Assembly (NCBI GenBank): GCA_021839985.1 | Contig: JAKBZO010000002.1 | Span: 1-49,296 of the forward strand | Source: a bacterium | GTDB taxonomy: Bacteria; Patescibacteriota; Minisyncoccia; Phycocordibacterales; SBAW01 | DNA: 49,296 nt | Reading direction: 5' to 3' | In this document: one piece after another, positions 2,813-22,149 of the stretch | Position numbering within the stretch: the first letter of the stretch is position 1 | Layout of the letters: every line of letters begins with the position of its first letter | The notes under the pieces: model-generated | The model's database searches: none | Told to the model about the DNA's origin: nothing | The model's input: only the letters and a program-made list of their open reading frames with translations | Program-made: the position numbers and the translations under genes

Positions 2813-2886
2813 CGGGCTGTAGTATACCGGTAGTACGCGTCCATGGGGTGGATGTAGACCGGGTTCGATTCCCGGCAGCCCGACCA
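2813..2886 (+). tRNA. tRNA-Pro (anticodon GGG), CCA encoded
   Basis: Hand-folded cloverleaf. Acceptor CGGGCTG/CAGCCCG, D arm GTAT-ACCGGTA-GTAC, anticodon arm CGTCC-AUGGGGU-GGATG (U33, G37), T arm CCGGG-TTCGATT-CCCGG, discriminator A, CCA. 74 nt. Confidence 0.9.
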
Positions 2887-2936
2887 TACGGAAAATCCGC
2901 CCTATCAACTGGCGGATTTTCCGTATGGTCGGGCTG
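2876..2936. repeat. Perfect 26-bp inverted repeat (9-nt loop) that includes the last 11 nt of tRNA-Pro
   Basis: 2876-2901 CAGCCCGACCATACGGAAAATCCGCC is the exact reverse complement of 2911-2936 GGCGGATTTTCCGTATGGTCGGGCTG. Confidence 0.95.
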
Positions 2937-3080
2937 AACAGACAAACTGCTTTGTCTGTGTCCGGAATCGAAAGCCGGAACATGCTTCGGCCAGTAGGAT
3001 GAAGCCGTGAGGCGGGGTCGCTGAAATTTTCGAGCGACGGCGAGAAAATTATCAGTGACCGATTCCCGGCAGCCCGACCA
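2911..3080 (+). repeat. tRNA-end-flanked module M1 (homologous to M2 and M3 at 21.8-22.1 kb)
   Basis: Begins with an inverted copy (2926-2936) and ends with a direct 21-nt copy (3060-3080, CGATTCCCGGCAGCCCGACCA = 2866-2886) of the tRNA-Pro 3' end. Interior shares GGAATCGAAAGC and GAGCGACGGCGA with M2 and ATCAGTRAC with M3. Confidence 0.7.
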
Positions 3081-5437: not shown

Positions 5438-6751
5438 TTAGTTGTTCACTAAGTACTGCACGGCGGCGTCTTTCTGCGGATCGCGTCCGGCAGCGATATC
5501 GTCAGCGGTCGTCGTTGCATTGATGTCGGGCGTGAGGCCGCCATCGGAGATCGACGTGCCGTTAGGCGTCAGCCAGCGCGCCACTGTGATCTTCACCTGC
5601 GCGCCGTCGCCGAGGTCGAAAACCTCCTGCACCGAACCTTTGCCAAATGAGCGCGTGCCCACGAGTTTGGCGATGCCGTGCTGCTGTAGTGCACCCGAAA
5701 GGATCTCTGCCGCCGACGCGGTCCCCTGGTCGATCAGGATCGCCATCGATAGTTTCTTATTGGCAAAGACGTTGTAGCCGAAGCTGCGGTGCGTGTTGTT
5801 GCTCTGCGTGCCGCGGAAATCTTCGGTCACGACCGTGTCGCCTGCAGGCAAGAAGTAGCTCGCCATATCGACCGCCGCGTCGAGGTAGCCGCCTGGGTTG
5901 CCGCGCAGGTCGAGCATCAAGCGCGTGTCTCCGGACTCGAAGAATGCGCGAAGAGCCTCTCGGAATTGATCGGCCGAGGTTGCGGAGAAATTGTACAGGT
6001 CGATCTCGAAGATCTTGGTGTCGGCGTGATTGACGTAGTTGATCGTCGGGATCGCGATGGTGTCGCGCACGATCGCTATTGTGAACGGTTGGCTCGTGCC
6101 GGCGCGCGTGAGCGTGAGTTTAACGGTCGTGCCCTTCTCTCCGCGAATAAGCGCTACCGCTTGATCGGCGGTCATATCGGCAGTGCTCGTGCCATCGATC
6201 GCGAGGATCTTGTCGCCAGCGCGAACGCCGGCCGCTTCTGCAGGACTCCCCTTAAGCGGAGCGATCACTGTCACTGCATTGTCTTGCACACCGACATCCA
6301 TGCCGACGCCGCCGAACGAACCGCTGACGTTCTCATCGAACATCTTCGCGTCTTGCGGCGGGAAGAAGGTCGTGTACGGATCACCGTAGCTGTCGACAAG
6401 ACCTTGAAGCATGCCGTAGACCTTCTGCTGGTCGGTCGGGATCGTACCGCTCGCGTGCGTCTCGACGAAATTGCTGTTCAGAAGATTCCAGGTGCGCCAA
6501 AGCGTGGTGAGGTCCACATTGCTCGGCTCGCTGCCTCCGGAGAGATCGAGTGTGACCGAGGTCGTGCCCGGCGTACTTGATGCGGATGGATCGGCGCTTA
6601 TCACTTGCGTTTGTGCAAGCGTCGATACCTGATGAATGCCGACATACAGCCCGGCAATGAAGACCGCGACGATGAAGATAAAAGCGCCAGCCGCACGTTT
6701 GGTAGTGTTGGATAATGCGCTCGGAGTGAATTCTGGTTCCATGCTCTGCAT
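5438..6751 (-). CDS. Carboxy-terminal processing (S41) peptidase with N-terminal membrane anchor and PDZ domain
   Basis: PDZ-like GSPAEAAGVRAGDKILAIDG; S41 motifs RGNPGG and DQGTASAAEILSGALQ..KLVG..FGKG. Confidence 0.85.
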   Translation of the reverse strand: MQSMEPEFTPSALSNTTKRAAGAFIFIVAVFIAGLYVGIHQVSTLAQTQVISADPSASSTPGTTSVTLDLSGGSEPSNVDLTTLWRTWNLLNSNFVETHASGTIPTDQQKVYGMLQGLVDSYGDPYTTFFPPQDAKMFDENVSGSFGGVGMDVGVQDNAVTVIAPLKGSPAEAAGVRAGDKILAIDGTSTADMTADQAVALIRGEKGTTVKLTLTRAGTSQPFTIAIVRDTIAIPTINYVNHADTKIFEIDLYNFSATSADQFREALRAFFESGDTRLMLDLRGNPGGYLDAAVDMASYFLPAGDTVVTEDFRGTQSNNTHRSFGYNVFANKKLSMAILIDQGTASAAEILSGALQQHGIAKLVGTRSFGKGSVQEVFDLGDGAQVKITVARWLTPNGTSISDGGLTPDINATTTADDIAAGRDPQKDAAVQYLVNN

Positions 6752-6800: not shown

Positions 6801-8309
6801 ATGACCGATATGTTGACACGGTTTCTTTCTGTGTTTTCCAAGCGTCCGAAGCGCTCGTCTTTGCCGCCGCTCTATTTTCGCAATACGCTCTCCGGCGATC
6901 TTGAGGAGTTCATTCCCCTCTCGCGCAAGGTGGTGAAGATGTACAACTGCGGTCCGACCGTCTACGGCCCGCAGCACATCGGCAACATGCGCGCTGCGGT
7001 GTTCGCCAACACGATCAGGCGCGCACTCGACCGCTTCGGCTATGACGTGAAGCAGGTCATCAATATCACCGACTTCGGGCACTTGGTCGCCGACGCCGAC
7101 GATGGCGAAGATAAAATGACCGCGGGGCTCAAACGCGAAGGCATGGAGCTCACGCTTGAGAATATGCACACGCTTGCCGAGAAATATGCGCAGCTGTACC
7201 TGGACGACATTCGTTTGCTTGGCGTCGATACGGAGAAGATCACGTTCCCGCGCGCGAGCGCCTACATTCCCGAGCAGATCGCGCTCATTCGAGCGCTCGT
7301 CGAAAAAGGGTACGCCTACAAAACAAAGAACGGCGTGTACTTCGAGGTGGCACGCTTCCCTTCCTACGGCAAACTAGGCGGCGTTAAACTCTCGGGCCTC
7401 AAAGAAGGCGCGCGCATAAAAGGACATTCAGAAAAGCGCGGACCGTTCGACTTCACGCTATGGAAGCGCGACGCACATCTCGGCTGGGACAGCCCGTGGG
7501 GCAAAGGGTTCCCCGGCTGGCATATAGAATGCACCGCGATGATCTTCAAGCTGCTCGGTAAGCAGATCGACATTCATACGGGCGGCATCGAACATATTCC
7601 GGTCCATCACAATAATGAGATCGCGCAGGCGGAGGCGGCGAGCGGCAAACGCTTCGTGAAGTATTGGATGCACAACGATCACATCATGGTCGAAGGAAAA
7701 AAGATCTCGAAGTCGATCGGCAACACCGTGTATCTCTACAACGTGACGGACCGCGGCTTCTCGCCGCTTGCGCTGCGCTACTGGTTCCTCACTGCGCACT
7801 ATCGCTCCTCCGCTAACTTCACCTGGGATGCACTTTCCGGTGCGGCGGCAGCGCTCGCTAAGCTCAAACGTTTTTTCTTGGAAGAACTGCCGCGCGATGG
7901 TGCTCCCGCTTCACCCGACACGGCGTTCATGAAAGACATACTCGACGCGATTGCGCACGACCTCGATACGCCAAAGGTCATCGCGCGCACCTGGGAGCTC
8001 GTGAAGGACATGAATGTTTCTCCTGCTGCCAAGCGCGCGTCGTTGCTTGAAGTGGACGCGCTTCTTGGTCTCGGACTCGCCGCGGCTGATTCGCGCGCCG
8101 CCGTGCCGTCTATGCTTGCAGTGGTAGAAGAGAAGGAGGAGGCGGTGCCGGAGGAAGTGGCAGCGCTCCTGGAGGCGCGCACGGCGGCGCGCGAAGCCAG
8201 AGATTTTGCGAAAGCGGATGATCTGCGCGCGAAGATCGCAGAACGAGGCTATGAGATCAAAGATACCGGCAACGGCGCGCAGCTCAGCAAACTAAGCGGG
8301 CAGCAGTAG
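6801..8309 (+). CDS. cysS: Cysteine--tRNA ligase
   Basis: HIGH-type PQHIGNMR, the KISKS (KMSKS) motif and a GWHIEC zinc site. The start (6801 or 6810) is not resolved. Confidence 0.92.
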   Translation: MTDMLTRFLSVFSKRPKRSSLPPLYFRNTLSGDLEEFIPLSRKVVKMYNCGPTVYGPQHIGNMRAAVFANTIRRALDRFGYDVKQVINITDFGHLVADADDGEDKMTAGLKREGMELTLENMHTLAEKYAQLYLDDIRLLGVDTEKITFPRASAYIPEQIALIRALVEKGYAYKTKNGVYFEVARFPSYGKLGGVKLSGLKEGARIKGHSEKRGPFDFTLWKRDAHLGWDSPWGKGFPGWHIECTAMIFKLLGKQIDIHTGGIEHIPVHHNNEIAQAEAASGKRFVKYWMHNDHIMVEGKKISKSIGNTVYLYNVTDRGFSPLALRYWFLTAHYRSSANFTWDALSGAAAALAKLKRFFLEELPRDGAPASPDTAFMKDILDAIAHDLDTPKVIARTWELVKDMNVSPAAKRASLLEVDALLGLGLAAADSRAAVPSMLAVVEEKEEAVPEEVAALLEARTAAREARDFAKADDLRAKIAERGYEIKDTGNGAQLSKLSGQQ

Positions 8310-11408: not shown

Positions 11409-11765
11409 TTACTTGATCGAAGCAACCTTCACTTCGAAGTATGGCTGACGATGACCGCGGCGCTTGAAGTAGTTGCTCTTGGCTTTGTACTTTACGACCT
11501 CGACCTTCTTGGCGCGAGCGATCTTGAGAATTTCAGCCGAGACCTGTGCGCCCTTGATATATGGTTCACCGATCGTGGTGTCCTTGCCGTTGTCGACGAC
11601 GAGCACCTTGTCGAAGACGACCGTGTCGCCCTCCTTGTGTGCTGCGCGCTTACCATCGACGACCGGAAGCTTGATCTTTTCGACGCGAACAACATCCCCT
11701 TCCTTGACAAGGTATTGTTTTCCTCCCGTTTCGATGATAGCGAATTCCTCTTTCTTGGCTGTCAT
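11409..11765 (-). CDS. rplU: 50S ribosomal protein L21
   Basis: Start at the internal ATG 11765 gives MTAKKEEFAIIETGGKQYLVKEGD.., the canonical L21 N-terminus. The ORF-track extension to 11867 is rejected. Confidence 0.9.
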   Translation of the reverse strand: MTAKKEEFAIIETGGKQYLVKEGDVVRVEKIKLPVVDGKRAAHKEGDTVVFDKVLVVDNGKDTTIGEPYIKGAQVSAEILKIARAKKVEVVKYKAKSNYFKRRGHRQPYFEVKVASIK

Positions 11766-11922
11766 AATGCTCAGTACTATATCCGAAAAAGACTTTATGT
11801 GCAAGTTTTCCGTATCGGGTTTGCTGCGAAAAGATCGCCGTATTTTTCTGCTGAAAAATCGGCTCACTCTCGCACCGTCGTGCTCCGAGAGTCTTTTCGC
11901 CTCAAACCCTCACTCTCGTGGT

Positions 11923-15848: not shown

Positions 15849-15920
15849 GGCCCTATCGTCTAACGGTTAGGACAGCGCCCTTTCACGGCGTAAATCGGGG
15901 TTCGATTCCCCGTAGGGTCA
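15849..15920 (+). tRNA. tRNA-Glu (anticodon UUC), CCA not encoded
   Basis: Hand-folded. Acceptor GGCCCTA/TAGGGTC, D arm GTCT-AACGGTTA-GGAC, anticodon arm GCGCC-CUUUCAC-GGCGT, T arm CGGGG-TTCGATT-CCCCG, discriminator A. 72 nt. Confidence 0.9.
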
Positions 15921-17631
15921 CAAGTTGGGATTTATTTGCACTGAATTCCTCAGAAAGCTTGAAAAGGCTTGTTAGTTTTGGTGTTCCATTAAGTATTTGG
16001 TCGTAGGTCGGAATCTCCTCAAAAAACAGGGTCAGGAGCAACCGGCGGCTAAACAAATTATCAGCCTCCGTAAGGATTTCTGAGGGGTGTTCCATTACGT
16101 GAGCGGCGTAATGTCGGAAGCTGCGAATACTCTTCTCCGTAATCTCGATGCGTCCACGCTCGCCCTCAGCTTTTGTTATATCCTTTTCGATTTGCTCAAT
16201 CTCAGCTTCCAGCATATCGCGCACGGTCTGAGTCTTCGCATGACCAAAGGCATCAAGTTTGTTTGCAAGCTTTGTTTTCAGGTCGGCGACATTGTGGCCG
16301 ATGGATGAAGCTGCGACGAGAATCTCTTTTTCACGGTTGCGATATTCATCAAGCAAATGGAGTTCGAGGAGAGCCAAGAAGCCCTCATCAAATTTCAAAC
16401 TATCCAAATAGGCGCGAACGTTTTTCTCAAATTCGTCCTGCGCGATGCGGAAGTATTCATGCGCTCTTTTGCCAGACTTTGAGCCTCCGCAATGGTAGGC
16501 AGGAAATTTCTTACCCGATTTACCTACAGAAGCACTGGCAAGTACTTCAGATTTACAATGGTGGCAAAGAATACACTTCCACGGATATTCAGGATTGTCT
16601 TTGATACGCTTTACCTTGCCCCATGGTGAGTAGTTATGCCGTACTTCAACAGCATCACCCGCCTTTGCTTTGGCAAATGAATCGGGGTCAATGTAGATTT
16701 TCCCGCGATTAGCTCGGTTGAAGACATCAACCGAAACTATGCCATCCCAATGAGCCTTCACAGGACGATGCCGCGTCCATTTCTCGTATATGACCGCTAC
16801 ATATTCGGTCTGTTGAATCATTCGTTGCAATTGCTTTATAGTCAGCGGGTTGCCACCTGATTTACCAATAAGCTTAGGACGTTCTTTATCACTCCTGTCC
16901 CATCGGTGATAAAGCGGCGTTTTGTATCCCATTGCATTCAGGAGCCCCACGATTTTTGCGTCATCCCCACCGTTTGCCCTCATTTCAAATGCCTTTTGCA
17001 AAAAATGCGCTCGGTCGCTCGGCTCTCTAATAATTTTCTTTTTCCCGTCAACGAGAACTGAGCTATTCTTCAGTCCATCGGGTGCTCTGCGTACCGCATA
17101 GCCTTCCTGTACCAATTTCATTTCTGCTCCTACAAGCCGCGTCAGAATGTCTCTTACTTCCTGTCTGCCCTGGTGAGCTGCCAGCATTTCCGCAGTCTCA
17201 CTAGGCGAAGACATGCTCCACCAGTATTCGTGATTACCTCCCAGGTGTTCAAGTGAATTTCTTTTCGGTTGAATGATGCCCGTCGTATCAGCAAGCACGA
17301 TTCCTTCTCTCTCCAACTTATCTTTGAGCGGCCAATACTCCGGCGCGCCCATACGGGTAAACCGGTCTATGCTTTTGAAAATATATTTACTTATTACAAC
17401 CCCTGCTTTCTTCCTACTCTTGGCGTACGCAATGATTTCCTCGATGTCATCTCTCTCGGTTGTAGTGGCCGAGTGTGGTTTACGAAAGACTTTATCAACT
17501 ATCCAACCTTGTCGCTCAGCAAGAAAACGTCCTGCCATCTCTTGGTTTTCGAGGCTGCCGCCCTTCAACTGCTGCGGGTCGCTGACCCGGCAATCTATCA
17601 CCGCGTAGACTTTAGGATTGCCCATACTCAT
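15883..17631 (-). CDS. Large serine recombinase (integrase)
   Basis: N-terminal resolvase catalytic domain (YAVIDCRVSDPQQ, SIDRFTR), a recombinase domain, a zinc-ribbon-like CILCHHC..YHCGG and a C-terminal coiled coil. The last 13 codons are antisense to tRNA-Glu. Confidence 0.9.
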   Translation of the reverse strand: MSMGNPKVYAVIDCRVSDPQQLKGGSLENQEMAGRFLAERQGWIVDKVFRKPHSATTTERDDIEEIIAYAKSRKKAGVVISKYIFKSIDRFTRMGAPEYWPLKDKLEREGIVLADTTGIIQPKRNSLEHLGGNHEYWWSMSSPSETAEMLAAHQGRQEVRDILTRLVGAEMKLVQEGYAVRRAPDGLKNSSVLVDGKKKIIREPSDRAHFLQKAFEMRANGGDDAKIVGLLNAMGYKTPLYHRWDRSDKERPKLIGKSGGNPLTIKQLQRMIQQTEYVAVIYEKWTRHRPVKAHWDGIVSVDVFNRANRGKIYIDPDSFAKAKAGDAVEVRHNYSPWGKVKRIKDNPEYPWKCILCHHCKSEVLASASVGKSGKKFPAYHCGGSKSGKRAHEYFRIAQDEFEKNVRAYLDSLKFDEGFLALLELHLLDEYRNREKEILVAASSIGHNVADLKTKLANKLDAFGHAKTQTVRDMLEAEIEQIEKDITKAEGERGRIEITEKSIRSFRHYAAHVMEHPSEILTEADNLFSRRLLLTLFFEEIPTYDQILNGTPKLTSLFKLSEEFSANKSQLVTLRGIEPRFTP

Positions 17632-17816
17632 ATTGTACCGCGAGGAGGGGCGTCCTGCCGGACGGCATCGGTCGCTGTTTTTGCTCGTTTATTCCAGTTA
17701 TCAAAAAGGACGCTAGCCAAGCGGCTCATGCGTTCGTTTACCATTTCTATTTCTTTGTCAGACATTTGTTCCCCACGAGAACCAAGTGCCTTCCTGCAAT
17801 CCTGGACAGATACCAT
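17628..17816 (-). CDS. Small hypothetical protein upstream of, and overlapping, the recombinase start
   Basis: 62 aa from the ATG at 17816 (MVSVQDCRKALGS..). Its stop overlaps the recombinase ATG by 4 nt. Function unknown; an RDF or regulator is possible. Confidence 0.4.
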   Translation of the reverse strand: MVSVQDCRKALGSRGEQMSDKEIEMVNERMSRLASVLFDNWNKRAKTATDAVRQDAPPRGTI

Positions 17817-18203
17817 AGCCTTTCGGCTAGGCAAGAAAACCCTCAACACAAAACAAACCCGTGGTTAGGGTTTGCTAGAAAAAGTGGTGGTATATGGGGT
17901 TAGTTGACTGAAGAATTTAAATGGGGTTTTTGGAGAAGAAATTGTATGGACAAAATAGAAAAGATTTTTTGAATCTTTTTTCCGGCTGCGAGTTTTCAAA
18001 GAGCCTAGCGCCCCTTAATTCAATCATGCGAGGCCTCAAATCACAAGTGTATTTTGACAAAAAACTGAGGAAAAATACGAATTGTATCTTTCCGATATTG
18101 TAGCTTGTTGCAGCCCTGATAATACACGAGAAAATGCGAATTTATGGCTCAGGACAAAGGCCAGAACCTTGGAACGACTCCGAACCTGCCACCCTACTTT
18201 TTC

Positions 18204-18375
18204 GGAAAGATTCCGGAAGATACATCTCTGTGAAATATGCGGAAGATTGAGGGAGATGGAATGTGTCTACCAAAGCCTTTTATGGCTTCAAATCTGGGTT
18301 TCCGGTCAAAAATTGCACATTTGTATCTTCCGCATATTTCCCAATCTTTCCCAGAGATGCTTTCTCCGGGGAAAG
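18204..18375. repeat. Iteron-like repeat cluster with a 16-bp perfect inverted repeat
   Basis: GAAATATGCGGAAGAT (18232-18247) is the reverse complement of 18325-18340. CATCTCTG 18223-18230 pairs with 18352-18359, and GGAAAGATT 18204-18212 with 18343-18351. There are five GGAAGAT/GGAAAGAT copies (3 direct, 2 inverted). Confidence 0.85.
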
Positions 18376-18379
18376 TATG

Positions 18380-18829
18380 CTAGAGATTCAGGAGTTGCTT
18401 TTTCTTCTGGTTGAATTCGTCCTCCGTGATGACACCTCGCTCCTTCAGATTCGCAAGTTTTTCAAGCTCGTCCATGCTGCTGTGTTTCTGCCCGTCCTGC
18501 CCGATACGCTCCTCGATGAGTCGCTTCGCTTCCTCAAACTTTTCGTTCTTGCCACCGTATACGTGGAAGTTTATTGAGTTCTCGTCCTTGGCCGACTGGA
18601 ATAGCCCGGCCTTGGCCTCAGAACCGCCCATAAGCGTGAGTTGGATGTACCCGGCTACCATACCCGCTCTTTTGAGTTGCACGGCCACTATACGCGAATA
18701 CGGAATGGTCTTGTCGCCCCGCAACATTCCACCACCAAGCAGAAAACCTTTCATGCCGCGTTTAATAATCACACCCGCATCCGTGAGGATGAGAGTGCCG
18801 TTGTACCCCTTATATTCTCTTTGTTCCAT
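18380..18829 (-). CDS. SHOCT-domain protein with an N-terminal PH-like beta-rich domain
   Basis: The C-terminus DELEKLANLKERGVITEDEFNQKKKQLL matches the SHOCT consensus. The N-terminal domain assignment is tentative. Confidence 0.75.
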   Translation of the reverse strand: MEQREYKGYNGTLILTDAGVIIKRGMKGFLLGGGMLRGDKTIPYSRIVAVQLKRAGMVAGYIQLTLMGGSEAKAGLFQSAKDENSINFHVYGGKNEKFEEAKRLIEERIGQDGQKHSSMDELEKLANLKERGVITEDEFNQKKKQLLNL

Positions 18830-19056
18830 AGGACTTATAGGCTAGCTCGTAAGTCCGGGGCAGGCTCTCACACAAAAAGCCCGCCACGGGTAGAGGCCGA
18901 AGCCCCTCGTATGAGTTTCCCCATACGGCCAGTTAGACACCCCATGACGGGTTCTTTGTGTCTAACTGGACTTTTTCACCATGCCCGGTCTTGAGACCGA
19001 GTTTAGGCTACTTCGCACCTGTTGTGCCCCTTAATGATAACAGGAAATGGCCGGGA

Positions 19057-19860
19057 ATGCCCTTTAGGCGACGGTTCAATTCTTGGAACAAAGAGCGTAT
19101 AGTTGCCCCTATGAACAACGGCTTTTGTATACCAAAAAATGCCTTCCAAGCACTTCTGATAGAGCGGCAGAAGGCCATGCTTAGGCGTGTCATGGCGACC
19201 TTCGCGGATAGCCTATCTCAGCAAGAAATGGTGGCGCAGATGGAGCGTGAAGAGGGCGCGTTTAGCGAAGCGATGAAGGCAGAGAACGCAAAATTTGCAG
19301 CAAAGACCACGAACGTGGAAATCGTCATCGCGTTCCAACTAGCAGACTTCTATTTCCCTGGCGTTGATGCCGAGCTGTGCTTTGAAATGCGGAAGAGCTT
19401 CTCTCCCGATTCTGCAACTTCCTACGACAACATCGTAGCCGGAATTGAAAATGACACCGCGATAGACTGCGCGATAAGAGCTGACGGTCGGCAGTTTCAT
19501 TTCCAAATAAAGCGTTGTCCGCAAGAATATCTGCCGCATACACGCGCCGCGCTGACCGAGTACATCAAGAAGACGCTCTCTCATTACGGCAATATGAAAG
19601 GGACAGGTCTTGTGCTTCTCCTCCAACCCAATACCGAGGAGCGCAATGACGACCTGAGTTTCAAGGAAGTACACGAGGACATGGTGGCGATAAAAGACCA
19701 GATAACTTTTAACGAGATTGTTTTCGTCTTTAACAACCAAATGCAGAGTATGCGTTGGCAGCAGGTGTTCCCGGCCTACGGTTACAGCGAGAAACCGCTC
19801 GTACTCCTCAGTGAGAAGTACCAAGCGCAGCAGGAAGAGTGGAAAAATAAAACCTTATGA
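19057..19860 (+). CDS. Hypothetical protein A (island cargo), start uncertain (19057 or 19111)
   Basis: AGGAAA lies 10 nt upstream of ATG 19057; the ORF-track GTG 18958 lies inside a hairpin. Contains ..AIDCAIRADGRQFHFQIKR.., a D..QxK pattern weakly compatible with a PD-(D/E)xK core. Confidence 0.55.
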   Translation: MPFRRRFNSWNKERIVAPMNNGFCIPKNAFQALLIERQKAMLRRVMATFADSLSQQEMVAQMEREEGAFSEAMKAENAKFAAKTTNVEIVIAFQLADFYFPGVDAELCFEMRKSFSPDSATSYDNIVAGIENDTAIDCAIRADGRQFHFQIKRCPQEYLPHTRAALTEYIKKTLSHYGNMKGTGLVLLLQPNTEERNDDLSFKEVHEDMVAIKDQITFNEIVFVFNNQMQSMRWQQVFPAYGYSEKPLVLLSEKYQAQQEEWKNKTL

Positions 19861-20837
19861 AATTATTCTCCGACGACTTTCCCGAAGTAAACAGCGACGA
19901 GCAAATTGCCGAGCTGCAAAAACAGTTTCCCGAATACGACGCGGGATATTTGGTGCAGGGCGCATACGGACTCCGAAGACACACGAAGGAGTGGATGGAG
20001 CGCATGTGGGCGCAATATGAACCATATGCCGACCCTCATTTTCTAGAGGAGTTTAAACGGCACTTCACTCAGCGTTCTTGGGAGCTGTATCTCGGCGCAA
20101 CGCTCCTCAATCGCGGCTTCAAGCTCGGAGCACATAAGAACGCGGGGGCAGATTTTGATGTACAAAACGACAAGGGTGAGCGTATAACGTGGATAGAGGC
20201 CATCGCGGTGCGCCCCGGAGAGGGCGCAGATAGGGTGCCTGACCTCACATATGAGGTTGTAACGAGCGTGCCGGTGGATGAGATGCTTCTCCGCGTCGCT
20301 GCGGCCTTGGACGCTAAACACAAGAAATATCTTTCCGACGTAAAGAATGGTTTTGTGGCGAGCAACGAGCCGTATGTTATCGCGCTCGACCGTTCCGAAT
20401 TGGGTCATGTGGAAATCCCGCCGTCGCTCATTCTGAAAGCTCTTTTTGGTATTGGCCACCTGACATTGAGTTTCCCGGTACCGGTGCCGGGCGAAGCACC
20501 AAGAACTGAGGAGCCGAAGAGGTTTTGGGGAGCATTGCCTGAAGTTTCAAAGAAAAGCGGCAGTCCCGTATCTATGCAGTTTTTTGAGAATCCTGCACAC
20601 GCCGGTATAAGCGCGGTGATTTATTCTGTGCCGCATGTAATCAGCAGTCCGCGCGTGCCTGAGGAAATGGGAGAACACTTTTATGTCGTCCATAATCCGC
20701 AGGCAACAGATCCGCTTCCTTCCGAGGCATTGCCATTTGGTGAGGAGTACCGAGTTGAGGGCGACATAGTAAATCTCACGAGAGAACGAAAAGAGTACCA
20801 ATCTCCTGACCCTTTTGAACACCTAAGCGATAACTGA
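19857..20837 (+). CDS. Hypothetical protein B (island cargo), translationally coupled to A
   Basis: ATGA overlap with A at 19857-19860. Contains ..RSWELYLGATLL..GADFDVQNDKGERITWIEAIAV.., a helix-Glu/Asp/Glu pattern reminiscent of restriction-endonuclease-like folds but with no Lys in the third motif. Confidence 0.65.
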   Translation: MKLFSDDFPEVNSDEQIAELQKQFPEYDAGYLVQGAYGLRRHTKEWMERMWAQYEPYADPHFLEEFKRHFTQRSWELYLGATLLNRGFKLGAHKNAGADFDVQNDKGERITWIEAIAVRPGEGADRVPDLTYEVVTSVPVDEMLLRVAAALDAKHKKYLSDVKNGFVASNEPYVIALDRSELGHVEIPPSLILKALFGIGHLTLSFPVPVPGEAPRTEEPKRFWGALPEVSKKSGSPVSMQFFENPAHAGISAVIYSVPHVISSPRVPEEMGEHFYVVHNPQATDPLPSEALPFGEEYRVEGDIVNLTRERKEYQSPDPFEHLSDN

Positions 20838-21203
20838 CTAGGTGATAATCACTCGCTCTCTATCTGAGGGTATTTCATCTACGTGCGACCGCTTAACTAC
20901 AGAACGGAGTAACTGCTCATCGCGGGCAAAAATGAATCTGTCGCTAGTTACAGCAAAGCGTAAATTTATTTGCCGGACTAGCTCACGGTCAATCCGGTGT
21001 CCAGTTGTTTTTGTGCCTGTGTTCCCAATGGAGAGGCTCATCGTTGCCGTCAATGGAATAACCTTCACCGCCCCCTGCGTCGCAATTCCTACGCCTTGAC
21101 CCCAATGTGTCTCACCATAGTTCTCAGGCGGAAAAATCGTGAATGGGTTGTCCGTAAGAATGAAAGATGCCGAATCGGGAGCGAAAAGGAATTGCCAGTC
21201 CAT
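20838..21203 (-). pseudogene. C-terminal fragment of a DUF4238-like protein
   Basis: ..FILTDNPF.. and ..FARDEQLL.. resemble the C-terminal half of DUF4238-type proteins (from memory). The N-terminal ~150 aa are absent, and the upstream in-frame sequence is His/Arg/Pro-rich nonsense. Confidence 0.4.
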
Positions 21204-21356
21204 ACCGAAATCGGCGGCAAGCTTCCATCGAAAGTAGGTGGGAGACTCTTTCTCTTTCGTTACGTGCTCCTTTGGGGTGTGGCGGGACTGGCTTTCTATT
21301 GGGTATATACCTATCGGATATTTTGGGATATTTTTCTTTGGGTGCCATATTCGCTT

Positions 21357-21578
21357 ATGGCGATGTGGCTCGCTATGAACTCTATCTTGCCGGTGGTGCG
21401 CTATTTTTCAGTTACCAGAAAACTGTTCGGCATAGATTCTGCAAAAAAAAGTTGGTGGCAACTGCTGACGCGGGGAGCAGCAATCGTCGGGCTCGTATTT
21501 GGGTCGCTGTTTGTTGGTATATATTTTTCCGTTGGCACAAACCTTACGCTTGATATCCTAAAGCATTTTGCCAACTAA
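21357..21578 (+). CDS. Possible small membrane protein (2-3 TM); start unresolved
   Basis: Hydrophobic segments MAMWLAMNSILPVV and AAIVGLVFGSLFVGIYF. The frame is open from 20997, but only the region after ~21230 looks protein-like. Confidence 0.3.
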   Translation: MAMWLAMNSILPVVRYFSVTRKLFGIDSAKKSWWQLLTRGAAIVGLVFGSLFVGIYFSVGTNLTLDILKHFAN

Positions 21579-21771
21579 TATTGCTTTGCGCTCTTGTTCT
21601 ATAACTCATTGGGTAAGTTCTTGCGGCTCTTCTTAGACGAAAAATCCAATTTTCTCTAGGCAAAAGCAGGTACTAGTTTCGCAACGCCCGTAGCCTCAAA
21701 AACTTCGTTCCACCGTAAAACCATGGTTTCCAAGGTGTTCCATTCTAGATACACTGAGTTCACAAATCGAC

Positions 21772-21800
21772 CGGTTCGAAAGCGTTTAGCTTTCGAACCG
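21772..21800 (+). terminator. Terminator-like hairpin just before module M2
   Basis: CGGTTCGAAAGC-GTTTA-GCTTTCGAACCG, a 12-bp perfect stem, followed by TTGTCGTTTGT. Confidence 0.45.
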
Positions 21801-21812
21801 TTGTCGTTTGTA

Positions 21813-21937
21813 GACCCTACGGGGAATCGAAAGCGAGCGCGGGCACCCGTTTTGCAGAACGGGTCGCGCGAGCGTGGCTAGGCGGAGCGAGGAGCGACGG
21901 CGACGAGCGAGCGCCTAGCCGATTCCCCGTAGGGTCA
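21813..21937 (+). repeat. tRNA-end-flanked module M2
   Basis: The 17-bp terminal inverted repeat GACCCTACGGGGAATCG (21813-21829) / CGATTCCCCGTAGGGTC (21920-21936) copies the tRNA-Glu T-loop/acceptor 3' end. The interior has GGAATCGAAAGC and GAGCGACGGCGA, identical to M1. Confidence 0.8.
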
Positions 21938-21978
21938 TGGTAACGAAAGAGAGCGCACTTCTGTGCGCCTTTTTCGTC

Positions 21979-22149
21979 TGTGACCCTACGAGCAAGGCGC
22001 CCGCGCGCCTTGCGTGGGAGTCGAATCGGCGGAGCATGTTCTGAGGTTTTACGAAGGACGGCGGGCCGCGTCCAGCAGTACTTATCTTTTTGCGAATACT
22101 TGGGACAAAAAGATCAGTAACTGTGGGATCATTCACCGTAGGGTCACAA
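21979..22149 (+). repeat. tRNA-end-flanked module M3
   Basis: Terminal inverted repeat TGTGACCCTACG (21979-21990) / CGTAGGGTCACA (22137-22148). It has the same architecture as M1: an inverted acceptor copy, a 9-bp hairpin with a CCGC loop, GGAGTCGAATC, CGGAGCATGTT, ..ATCAGTAAC.., and a direct tRNA 3' copy. Confidence 0.75.

Follow-up and report, generated by a model that had tools for sequence, protein, structure and literature searches.

Among the elements that integrate into tRNA and tmRNA genes, a T-loop sublocation class of tyrosine integrases was reportedly distinguished by Williams in 2002. Here, we consider a stretch of 49,296 nt from a bacterium of the Patescibacteriota (GenBank assembly GCA_021839985.1, contig JAKBZO010000002.1), called the window below and always taken at its full length, in which a tRNA-Pro gene is followed by one short non-coding module (M1) and a tRNA-Glu gene by two (M2 and M3). 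Elements that integrate into tRNA genes leave partial tRNA duplications behind (PMC9897764), and the modules resemble such attachment-site (att) duplications in carrying a direct repeat that runs from the T-loop to the 3' end of the host gene, in using tmRNA as well as tRNA targets, in accreting in tandem and in preserving a functional tRNA. They differ in being geneless, non-coding inserts of 115–175 bp with an internal inverted copy of the target, a covarying three-way junction and no linked integrase. A further difference is the breadth of targets: tRNAs of 17 amino-acid types, tmRNA and some non-tRNA sites all serve a single module family.

The modules belong to a real and abundant family of structured non-coding elements, roughly 100–170 nt long and absent from Rfam 15, whose closing helix follows whichever tRNA, tmRNA or other sequence stands upstream. 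On balance, we lean towards reading them as RNA-level elements that duplicate, are probably mobile and home to T-loops via an internal complementary strand.

The modules of the window

The layout is alike at the two loci, with the tRNA followed in turn by a spacer hairpin, an inverted copy, a core and a direct copy (Table 1). The Pro locus has one such unit and the Glu locus two in tandem, M3 being the decayed one. At the Pro locus, the 21-nt direct repeat CGATTCCCGGCAGCCCGACCA (2866-2886 and 3060-3080) is 100% identical at a spacing of 194 nt, and an inverted repeat pairs 2926-2936 with 3070-3080. The arms of the spacer, together with the flanking copy 1 and the inverted copy, make up a perfect 26-bp hairpin or palindrome (2876-2901 and 2911-2936); the spacer hairpin itself did not pass the terminator scan. 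Hairpin P1 of M1 is inserted precisely where the inverted acceptor part gives way to the inverted T-stem part. The Glu locus has inverted repeats of 17 bp in M2 (21813-21829 and 21920-21936) and of 12 bp in M3 (21979-21990 and 22137-22148), and M3 adds a hairpin with arms at 21992-22000 and 22005-22013 and, at 22131-22146, a copy of the tRNA-Glu 3' end that has one mismatch. All the repeats quoted in a reading made from the sequence alone (the original prediction) are found at the coordinates given there. An insert flanked by direct repeats, as an att site would leave, is seen (21, 18 and 16-17 nt in the window and a median of 18 nt in 54 other loci); the inserts (115–194 bp) are non-coding, and neither a cognate integrase nor specificity for one gene per lineage is seen.

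The interiors of all three modules had also been taken to be homologous. This is borne out for M1 and M2, which have a three-way-junction core of ~102 nt in common and score 93.6 bits (E 1e-24) and 57.8 bits (E 2.5e-14) against a covariance model built from nine other genomes, but not for M3 as a whole, which reaches 11 bits only (E 0.83). The 12-mers GGAATCGAAAGC and GAGCGACGGCGA occur twice each in the window, in M1 and M2 only; the spacing between them is 56 nt in M1 and 57 nt in M2, with a further 16 nt to CGATTCC in both. By estimate, ~0.001 shared 12-mers would be expected by chance for two sequences of such length. In M3, GAAGGACGGCGG is probably not the homolog of the loop motif for which it was taken, being better aligned with the 3' side of helix P3. 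M3 is still counted as a degenerate member on the grounds of architecture and place in the tandem; its fold z-score against shuffled sequence is -5.5, that of M1 is -7.5 and that of M2 is -10.5.

A Kaiserbacteria genome (locus L060) has tRNA-Glu followed directly by the spacer and an ortholog of M2, with no trace of the recombinase island that parts the two in the window. The tRNA-Glu genes differ at one acceptor position, and this change is echoed in copy 2 and, complemented, in the inverted copy; compensatory changes are also found at the base of helix P4. M2 is stably inherited at tRNA-Glu in two species, and these coordinated changes are a sign of selection.

Table 1. Features of the Pro and Glu loci, in positions of the window
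Feature	Position	Strand	Basis
tRNA-Pro(GGG), host gene of M1	2813..2886	+	ARAGORN; Rfam tRNA 51.5 bits
Copy 1, final 21 nt of tRNA-Pro, T-loop C56 through CCA	2866-2886	+	direct repeat
Spacer hairpin, 15-bp arms (2887-2901 / 2911-2925)	2887..2925	+	inverted repeat
M1 inverted copy of acceptor 3' strand plus ACCA (5' strand of helix P0)	2926..2936	+	11/11 complementary
M1 hairpin P1, 9 bp (2938-2946 / 2951-2959), CTGC loop	2938..2959	+	inverted repeat
M1 three-way-junction core	2964..3066	+	covariance model, fold z-score, family covariation
M1 helix P2, 5' strand GGAATC(G) and 3' strand	2964-2970; 3060/3061-3066		
M1 helices P3 and P4	~2974-3013; ~3016-3060		
M1 apical motif GAGCGACGGCGA	3032-3043		
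M1 copy 2, exact 21-nt direct repeat of the tRNA-Pro 3' end, giving the 3' strands of P2 and P0	3060..3080	+	
tRNA-Glu(UUC), host gene of M2 and M3, now parted from both by an unrelated island	15849..15921	+	ARAGORN; Rfam tRNA 63.1 bits
Large-serine-recombinase island between tRNA-Glu and M2 (context, outside the element)	15924..21765 (approx.)	.	Pfam, low GC, P-arm, L060
Terminator-like spacer hairpin before M2	21772..21800	+	terminator scan; inverted repeat
M2 inverted copy of tRNA-Glu T-loop, T-stem and acceptor 3' strand (contiguous 5' strands of P0 and P2)	21813..21829	+	17/17 complementary
M2 three-way-junction core, with apical motif GAGCGACGGCGA at 21892-21903	21823..21926	+	model, fold, L060 ortholog
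M2 copy 2, 18-nt direct repeat of the tRNA-Glu 3' end	21920..21937	+	
Terminator-like hairpin between M2 and M3, spacer of the second tandem unit	21953..21968	+	terminator scan
M3, decayed tandem unit	21979..22149	+	inverted and direct repeats, fold z-score
M3 inverted acceptor copy	21979-21990		
M3 hairpin P1	21992-22013		
M3 degenerate core	~22017-22134		
M3 copy 2	22131-22148		

A family of non-coding elements

A search pattern drawn from the M1 and M2 interiors (GGAATCGAA..GAGCGNNGGCGA..CGAWTCC), in which the T-loop heptamers GGAATCG and CGAWTCC are the only parts of the ends to be fixed, matched 71 loci in GTDB species genomes. About 67 of these are genuine by the covariance model; four matches (L016, L026, L029 and L062) were discarded as false, having weak or no model match and the wrong context. 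RNAalifold on a plain MAFFT alignment gave a partial fold with the variable stems misaligned, and hence the structure of the model was specified by hand, with nine genome loci as ungapped seeds and model-based alignment thereafter. The model gave 99 matches across the loci examined and none in eight viral negative-control loci; among the matches are weaker modules in L002 and L004, which are recombinase loci, and one module that follows a tRNA-Ser in L002. With the closing helix P2 left unspecified, another pattern was run on metagenomes and found at least 120 stretches; all figures for this set refer to the matches listed. The central claim of the original prediction, a conserved core with ends matching the neighbouring tRNA, beyond what a simple att duplication would give, holds across roughly 150 further copies. 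The matches are mostly from Patescibacteria (Saccharibacteria, Kaiser-, Nomura-, Yanofsky- and Paceibacteria, and others) and from Elusimicrobia, and many copies persist in streamlined genomes of ~1 Mb.

The phage, plasmid and IMG/VR collections searched yielded no module copy. A looser pattern (TCGAA..GAGCGNNGGCGA..CGAWTCC) gave eight matches on viral contigs, all of them chance matches in coding sequence with no tRNA nearby, and these were reused as the negative controls. A scan of the whole window at the gathering thresholds of Rfam 15 returned two tRNAs and the LOOT motif only, with no family for the modules, and permissive scans of both loci found nothing relevant, the best match being tmRNA_permuted, which scored 27.5 bits (cut-off 47) where the tRNA 3' end and its hairpin lie. 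No Rfam ribozyme or intron, whether self-cleaving or group I or II, matched at either locus even at E up to 10, and the host tRNA upstream of the module is uninterrupted, being complete without splicing. No description of the family was found in the literature searched, the coverage of which is incomplete; to that extent, the suspicion that the modules are not of a described class is upheld.

An all-against-all BLAST of the 814 open reading frames (ORFs) of the 71 loci yielded no recurrent neighbour protein, only housekeeping families, each in at most seven loci, and no transposase, reverse transcriptase, integrase, HUH or TnpA/TnpB gene recurs within ~4 kb of the copies at these loci.

Elusimicrobia have a second small structured element (…GGTCCGCAAGGGCG…TTATCCGTGAC) beside the modules and in the opposite orientation, with weak model matches of 29-37 bits. 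It is found at 7206-7298 (-) in L064, 5775-5867 (+) in L066 and 6389-6473 (+) in L023, and downstream of the L030 module.

A three-way junction that covaries

The conserved core occupies ~85 nt between the complementary strand and copy 2, and nearly every core gives the same three-way junction when folded individually as a single sequence. Helix P2 joins GGAAUC(G) to (C)GAUUCC. Helix P3 reads GCC-[GGA]-GCG...hairpin...CGC-[GA]-GGC, with a GGA/GA internal loop, and P4 is GGUCGCGG...C-GA-GC-tetraloop-GC-GA-G...CCGUGAC(C), the 3' strand of which passes unbroken into the 3' strand of P2. Hairpins equivalent to P1, differing in sequence, are present in most members.

The model-based alignment has 92.3% of cells paired, compared with 64.8% in shuffles and 31-44% with slid partners. 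All but one of the 38 pairs change on both sides (37/38), and one G.U pair is kept in 59 of 94 sequences. Such an alignment is model-fitted and so biased towards the structure, but both the slid controls and the single-sequence folds, which are independent of it, speak for a real signal. In 67 of 68 cores the better fold is that of the tRNA-sense strand, its mean advantage over the complement being 10.9 kcal/mol. Because of this strand asymmetry and the conserved G.U pair, the functional form is most likely single-stranded, of the tRNA-sense strand, and RNA. A structured RNA with a mimic of the acceptor/T-arm was the last of three explanations first offered for the modules, and it is the one best supported by the strong strand-specific covariation and the conserved G.U pair.

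A fold of one strand might instead belong to DNA. It is improbable in our judgement, though not fanciful, that the modules are single-stranded-DNA recombination or transposition elements, folding in DNA of the tRNA sense (the strand that templates lagging-strand synthesis where gene and replication run the same way) and served by a recombinase encoded in trans. By analogy with CTX-phage attP and integron attC (tyrosine recombinases) and with the ends of IS200/IS605 (HUH Y1 transposase), P2 and P0, possibly stacked on P4, would mimic a duplex target, or else the internal strand would pair with cleavage sites. Structure and orientation are indeed strand-specific, and one-strand exchange of a folded hairpin, as derived from the CTX-phage and attC models, would predict the order target, spacer, inverted copy, ~90-130 nt and direct copy. 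The internal complementary strand can pair with both junctions, much as guide and cleavage site pair in IS608, and the terminator-like hairpins between tRNA and module are awkward for an RNA role. However, retention of what would be a G.T pair in DNA, and tandem G.A motifs typical of RNA, speak against it, as does the want of an R''/R' attC consensus, of cargo genes and of an integron integrase or HUH gene recurring near the copies. No copies were found on the phages, plasmids and viral contigs searched. Finally, under such a mechanism the copy carried by the element should derive from the host gene it left, but at most loci both copies match the gene beside which they now lie.

A 73-nt stretch of the window at 11827-11899 (-), 62 nt upstream of the gene for L21 (rplU, 11409-11765(-)), gives a weak match to the model (18.7 bits, E 0.005). 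It has the CGGAGC...GCGAG internal-loop motif and three-helix layout of the modules, and could be the leader of a ribosomal-protein gene or a remote relation of the module core.

Ends that follow the host gene

Within the 150 nt allowed, 54 modules of the genome set lie 2-130 nt downstream of a tRNA on the same strand. In the metagenome set, 56 of 82 have a same-strand tRNA at most 260 nt upstream and nine more are at contig edges; the amino-acid types counted at the outset are those of both sets together. Six modules that seemingly lack a tRNA lie after tmRNA genes. That copies always accompany tRNAs and match them at their ends is true of most, while some stand after tmRNA or at non-tRNA sites and obey the same logic at their ends. 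The tmRNA (ssrA) genes concerned, from Saccharibacteria and Paceibacteria, have one or two modules right after the 3' end (L022, L034, L035, L056, L058 and L114), with two in tandem in L035. Modules also sit between clustered tRNAs with spacers of 2-60 nt, for example in the order Val-module-Pro-module-Pro-module in L075, a cluster whose Ala tRNAs are without a module. Such tight clusters leave scant space for separate promoters, which suggests co-transcription.

All direct repeats of the genome set have as their first base the C of CGATTCC (T-loop position 56). The right edge is usually the discriminator and sometimes extends into the trailer. Over the family, the duplication is 7 to >25 nt in length, with a fixed left edge and a variable right one. 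At two loci, L076 and L079, copy 1 and copy 2 differ by one base of the T-stem. As the genome pattern itself fixed GGAATCG and CGAWTCC, the fair test of the ends is given by the copies found without the P2 constraint. In the metagenome set, the longest exact match of a module to its own tRNA has a median of 15 nt, compared with 5.5 nt for non-cognate tRNAs (those for other amino acids), and the own tRNA beats every non-cognate one in 43 of 56 cases. The 5' strand pairs at six or more of seven positions in 30 of 34. The T-loop variants CAATTCC, CAAGTCT, CAAATCC and CGAATCT are mirrored in the 5' strand as GGAATTG, AGACTTG, GGATTTG and AGATTCG, and the variant CGACTCC is mirrored likewise.

Each module was originally thought to begin with an inverted copy and end with a direct copy of the tRNA 3' end. 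The direct copy is general and so is the inverted copy of the T-loop/T-stem part, but the inverted acceptor copy is confined to a subset, being complementary at seven or more of eight positions in 25 of 51 modules compared with 29% in non-cognate controls. Its enrichment across the family is modest, and it was rejected as a universal trait. A second class of module pairs not with the T-loop but with the tRNA 3' terminus plus trailer (e.g. CACAAGG with CCTTGTG). A few members occur at non-tRNA sites, after a protein-coding gene or other sequence, in the order X, hairpin, anti-X, core, X'. Examples are L132/L123 (about 1380-1610), L145 and L122; in L132 a protein-coding gene, with its stop codon and terminator, precedes the unit, and the upstream GAGCAAACGC is complemented by ACGTTTGCTC before the core and imperfectly copied after it. 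The complementary strand includes the complement of T54 and T55; TT precedes CGATTCC in the tRNA, whereas GAC precedes copy 2.

So close a tie to the host gene raises the prospect of a host function. The module would then be a cis-encoded companion of the tRNA or tmRNA, made in the same transcript, with a complementary strand that pairs either with copy 1 or with the copy 2 mimic. It would be a switch with two states or a decoy, affecting how the tRNA 3' end matures or how stable or available the tRNA is, or else an acceptor/T minihelix mimic for a tRNA-binding enzyme; its spread to many tRNAs would be ancient, and gene conversion would keep the cores alike within a genome. We think this unlikely on present evidence, though it deserves more credit than any other alternative given here. 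In its favour are the inheritance of M2 in two species, in which tRNA, copy 2 and inverted copy change together and P4 compensates; the retention of many copies in genomes of ~1 Mb; the position of modules between the tRNAs of operons; the complement of T54/T55, which is a better fit to the TT of the tRNA context than to the GAC before copy 2; and the likeness of cores within one genome beside locus-specific flanks. It fits poorly with the patchy presence of modules in tRNA clusters (the Ala tRNAs of L075), with members placed after a protein-coding gene and at other non-tRNA sites, with the second class that avoids the T-loop and with the absence or imperfection of the acceptor-complementary strand in about half of the copies. 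Moreover, tandem arrays, shortened units and decayed copies such as M3 resemble selfish turnover.

The serine-recombinase island at tRNA-Glu

A 582-amino-acid ORF at 15883-17631(-), in a low-GC stretch, encodes a large serine recombinase with the Pfam Resolvase and Recombinase domains. Homologs are found in metagenome-assembled genomes (MAGs) of Parcubacteria type. In three other contigs as well (L001, L002 and L004), the recombinase gene ends 39-41 nt inside tRNA-Glu, and its stop codon falls in the anticodon-loop region of the tRNA. TCACAA stands at both junctions of the island (15918-15923 and 21760-21765), and the far ends of the islands have a conserved P-arm (TTCCAAGGTGTTCCA...TCACAA) that is common to L002 and L004 and ends at 21765 in the window. 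Because TCACAA closes the P-arm and also ends the tRNA-Glu junction, the crossover can be placed, as a deduction from sequence, at TCACAA/TCACCA at the 3' tip of the tRNA.

M2 and M3 had been assigned to the far end of this island. They are outside it, since tRNA-Glu and M2 are contiguous in L060 with no island present: everything from 21766 on, M2 and M3 included, is the original chromosome downstream of tRNA-Glu. The spacer hairpin before M2 directly followed the tRNA prior to insertion, and the island is a later, unrelated insertion into tRNA-Glu that split it from M2. Mobilisation of M2 by the island recombinase was accordingly rejected, the P-arm ending at 21765 and M2 starting at 21813.

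The two other explanations first offered, att arm remnants of integrases that retarget between tRNAs and MITEs (miniature inverted-repeat transposable elements) moved by the serine recombinase, thus retain very little credibility. What tRNA-integrating elements typically leave is a direct repeat of the tRNA 3' segment, starting in the T-loop, and M2 does adjoin the right end of the recombinase island. However, the crossover lies at the tRNA 3' terminus, M2 lies beyond it and L060 has no island, while almost all of the ~150 other copies have no integrase or recombinase nearby and the sites used extend from 17 types of tRNA to tmRNA and non-tRNA sequence. Integrase arm sites are unsupported because the inserts are short and non-coding, no gene is linked to them and what is conserved is a single-strand fold with compensatory changes rather than duplex sites. 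The MITE-like explanation is contradicted as to the recombinase and survives loosely, in that a small non-coding element has spread to many sites.

Islands of this family are roughly 6 kb each and occur in genomes of the candidate phyla radiation (CPR), with DUF4238, DUF4429/SHOCT and unknown ORFs as cargo. The LOOT RNA motif (Rfam RF03000) has a full-length match within the island at 18892-19009 (-), with 85.7 bits against a gathering score of 46.4, overlapping the start of the ORF at 18958-19860. Elsewhere in the window, positions 1-2800, upstream of tRNA-Pro, are low in GC (42-52%, compared with ~57% elsewhere), carry a Fic/DOC-family gene (107-1264) and are possibly another acquired segment.

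Duplication and turnover

Near-identical tandem units are found in L021, L033, L050, L064 and L095, and shortened second units in L023, L031, L060 and L083. L027 has, in succession, a repeat, a full module, a repeat, a 12-nt remnant (CGAACGAAGTAC) and a repeat; the remnant joins the first 10 nt of a unit to its last 2 nt and looks like an excision footprint or an internal deletion. The cores at different loci of one genome are 89-100% identical, compared with a between-genome median of 65%. Near-identical cores stand after tRNA-Lys and tmRNA in one Saccharibacteria MAG and after two Arg tRNAs in others.

An encoded CCA that follows one copy only does so at copy 2 in eight loci and at copy 1 in one. 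This fits copy 2 being the displaced original end, the evidence being modest. The CCA rate of copy 2 (12/36) is close to the background of module-free tRNAs (14/56), and in genomes whose copy 2 carries CCA the other tRNA genes are mostly without it. In L045, L051, L060 and L070, among others, it is the genomic trailer and not CCA that the inverted copies complement. Copying from mature tRNA by reverse transcription was also weighed, and the trailer and CCA counts support no inference on it.

How the element may home to T-loops

A unit begins with the 3' segment of the host gene (copy 1), usually from T-loop C56 to the discriminator, ~18-21 nt. A short spacer follows, often a terminator-like hairpin, and then a strand complementary to the 3' segment, of which the T-loop/T-stem part is always present and the acceptor part in a subset, the two parted by P1. 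The three-way-junction core comes next and lastly copy 2, pairing back with the complementary strand to form helices P2 and P0. On the favoured reading, the element would be co-transcribed with the tRNA and act as RNA. Its putative point of entry is immediately 5' of a sequence of at least 7 nt complementary to the internal strand, which would serve as the guide in target recognition, and entry would duplicate the segment downstream. Target-primed reverse transcription of the co-transcribed (read-through) RNA and single-strand DNA transposition are the candidate routes. The former would explain the host-derived repeats, the fixed left and variable right edge and the carry-over of flanks.

Several observations weigh against this account. 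Target-primed reverse transcription leaves the rewriting of the acceptor-complementary strand unexplained, and a simple target-site duplication likewise fails to explain how that strand matches each new host. Terminator-like hairpins are often found between tRNA and module, which argues against efficient co-transcription there, and the choice of RNA over single-stranded DNA is drawn solely from the strand asymmetry and the G.U pairs. The near-identity of cores within a genome could be due to gene conversion and not to transposition: the cores of L021 and L034 are 98% identical, yet their P1 and acceptor-complementary strands differ. The CCA asymmetry (8 vs 1) is modest. No transposase, reverse transcriptase or integrase is recurrently linked among the neighbours of the 71 loci, and no empty site for a module itself was recovered.

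A bolder idea, to which we give rather little weight, is that the core is a self-guiding RNA, catalytic or protein-assisted. Its internal strand would pair with the region from T-loop to 3' end of the tRNA or tmRNA, as RNA or gene, and the junction would set the U55|C56 bond at the branch point, where the element would be joined. If true, this would be either an RNA-guided mobile element that rewrites its own targeting helix with each hop, or a source of spare tRNA 3' fragments (C56 to CCA) for the repair of tRNAs cleaved in the T-loop.

Relation to other structured elements

Like integron attC sites and CTX-phage attP(+), the modules have imperfect inverted repeats ~60-140 nt apart that fold, a variable and sometimes branched interior, a structure that is conserved and tandem arrays. 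Unlike them, the stem is target-gene sequence, with no fixed R''/R', the interior core is conserved in sequence, the repeat boundary lies at the inner end of the stem, and G.U and tandem G.A point to RNA; there is neither cargo ORF nor integron integrase. Compared with the attC consensus (R'' RYYYAAC, R' GTTRRRY, cassettes and IntI), the stems equal the tRNA T-loop/acceptor, and no cassettes and no recurrent integrase were seen.

The IS200/IS605 elements and their ORF-less derivatives, the palindrome-associated transposable elements (PATEs), are also small, strand-specific and rich in hairpins, lack classical terminal inverted repeats and have an internal guide that pairs with the flank. Their guides are ~4 nt, however, and they show neither target duplication nor tRNA specificity. 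The modules have the hairpins and the pairing of internal strand with flank, but the pairing extends over 7-20 nt and the target is duplicated; the core fold is unrelated and TnpA/TnpB does not recur with them. As for MITEs, the inverted sequences of the modules are copies of the target and vary from locus to locus, the duplication is of no fixed length and no related transposase was seen. Retrons (msr-msd) have in common with them the terminal inverted repeats, but no reverse transcriptase recurs within ~4 kb, and the modules lie inside tRNA clusters.

R2, which inserts in 28S rDNA, its short non-autonomous derivatives and the tRNA-derived short interspersed nuclear elements (SINEs) offer another parallel: a fixed orientation in a highly expressed RNA gene, probable co-transcription, a structured RNA with host sequence at its ends, target duplications of variable length and non-coding copies. 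These are eukaryotic and have a known reverse transcriptase, whereas neither a reverse transcriptase nor a ribozyme is identified for the modules, and size and fold are unrelated. In the tRNA mimics (the tRNA-like domain of tmRNA, the bacterial Y-RNA YrlA, viral tRNA-like structures and mascRNA), as in the modules, the ends form an acceptor plus T-stem helix, and part of the cloverleaf gives place to an additional domain. A further likeness is a 3' end identical to that of a tRNA, sometimes with an encoded CCA. The modules differ from the mimics in that the junction replaces the T-loop, CCA is base-paired in M1, the mimic is specific for the adjacent tRNA and Rfam gives no match. As no known class clearly fitted on these comparisons, we take the family to be new, within the incomplete coverage of the literature.

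Significance

Modules create partial tRNA duplicates, which can mislead the calling of genomic-island boundaries in CPR genomes, as at the Glu locus; the modules are also hot spots for insertion by other elements such as the serine-recombinase island. If the reading given here is true, some of the smallest bacterial genomes hold many copies of a folded RNA element whose closing helix is spelled by the tRNA or tmRNA of the host. Should the modules serve the host, they would add a new layer to tRNA biology: every tRNA would be made together, in one transcript, with its own mimic or antisense partner. If they are mobile, base pairing would provide a new way for a non-coding element to pick and copy its target, which would be of interest for programmable insertion.

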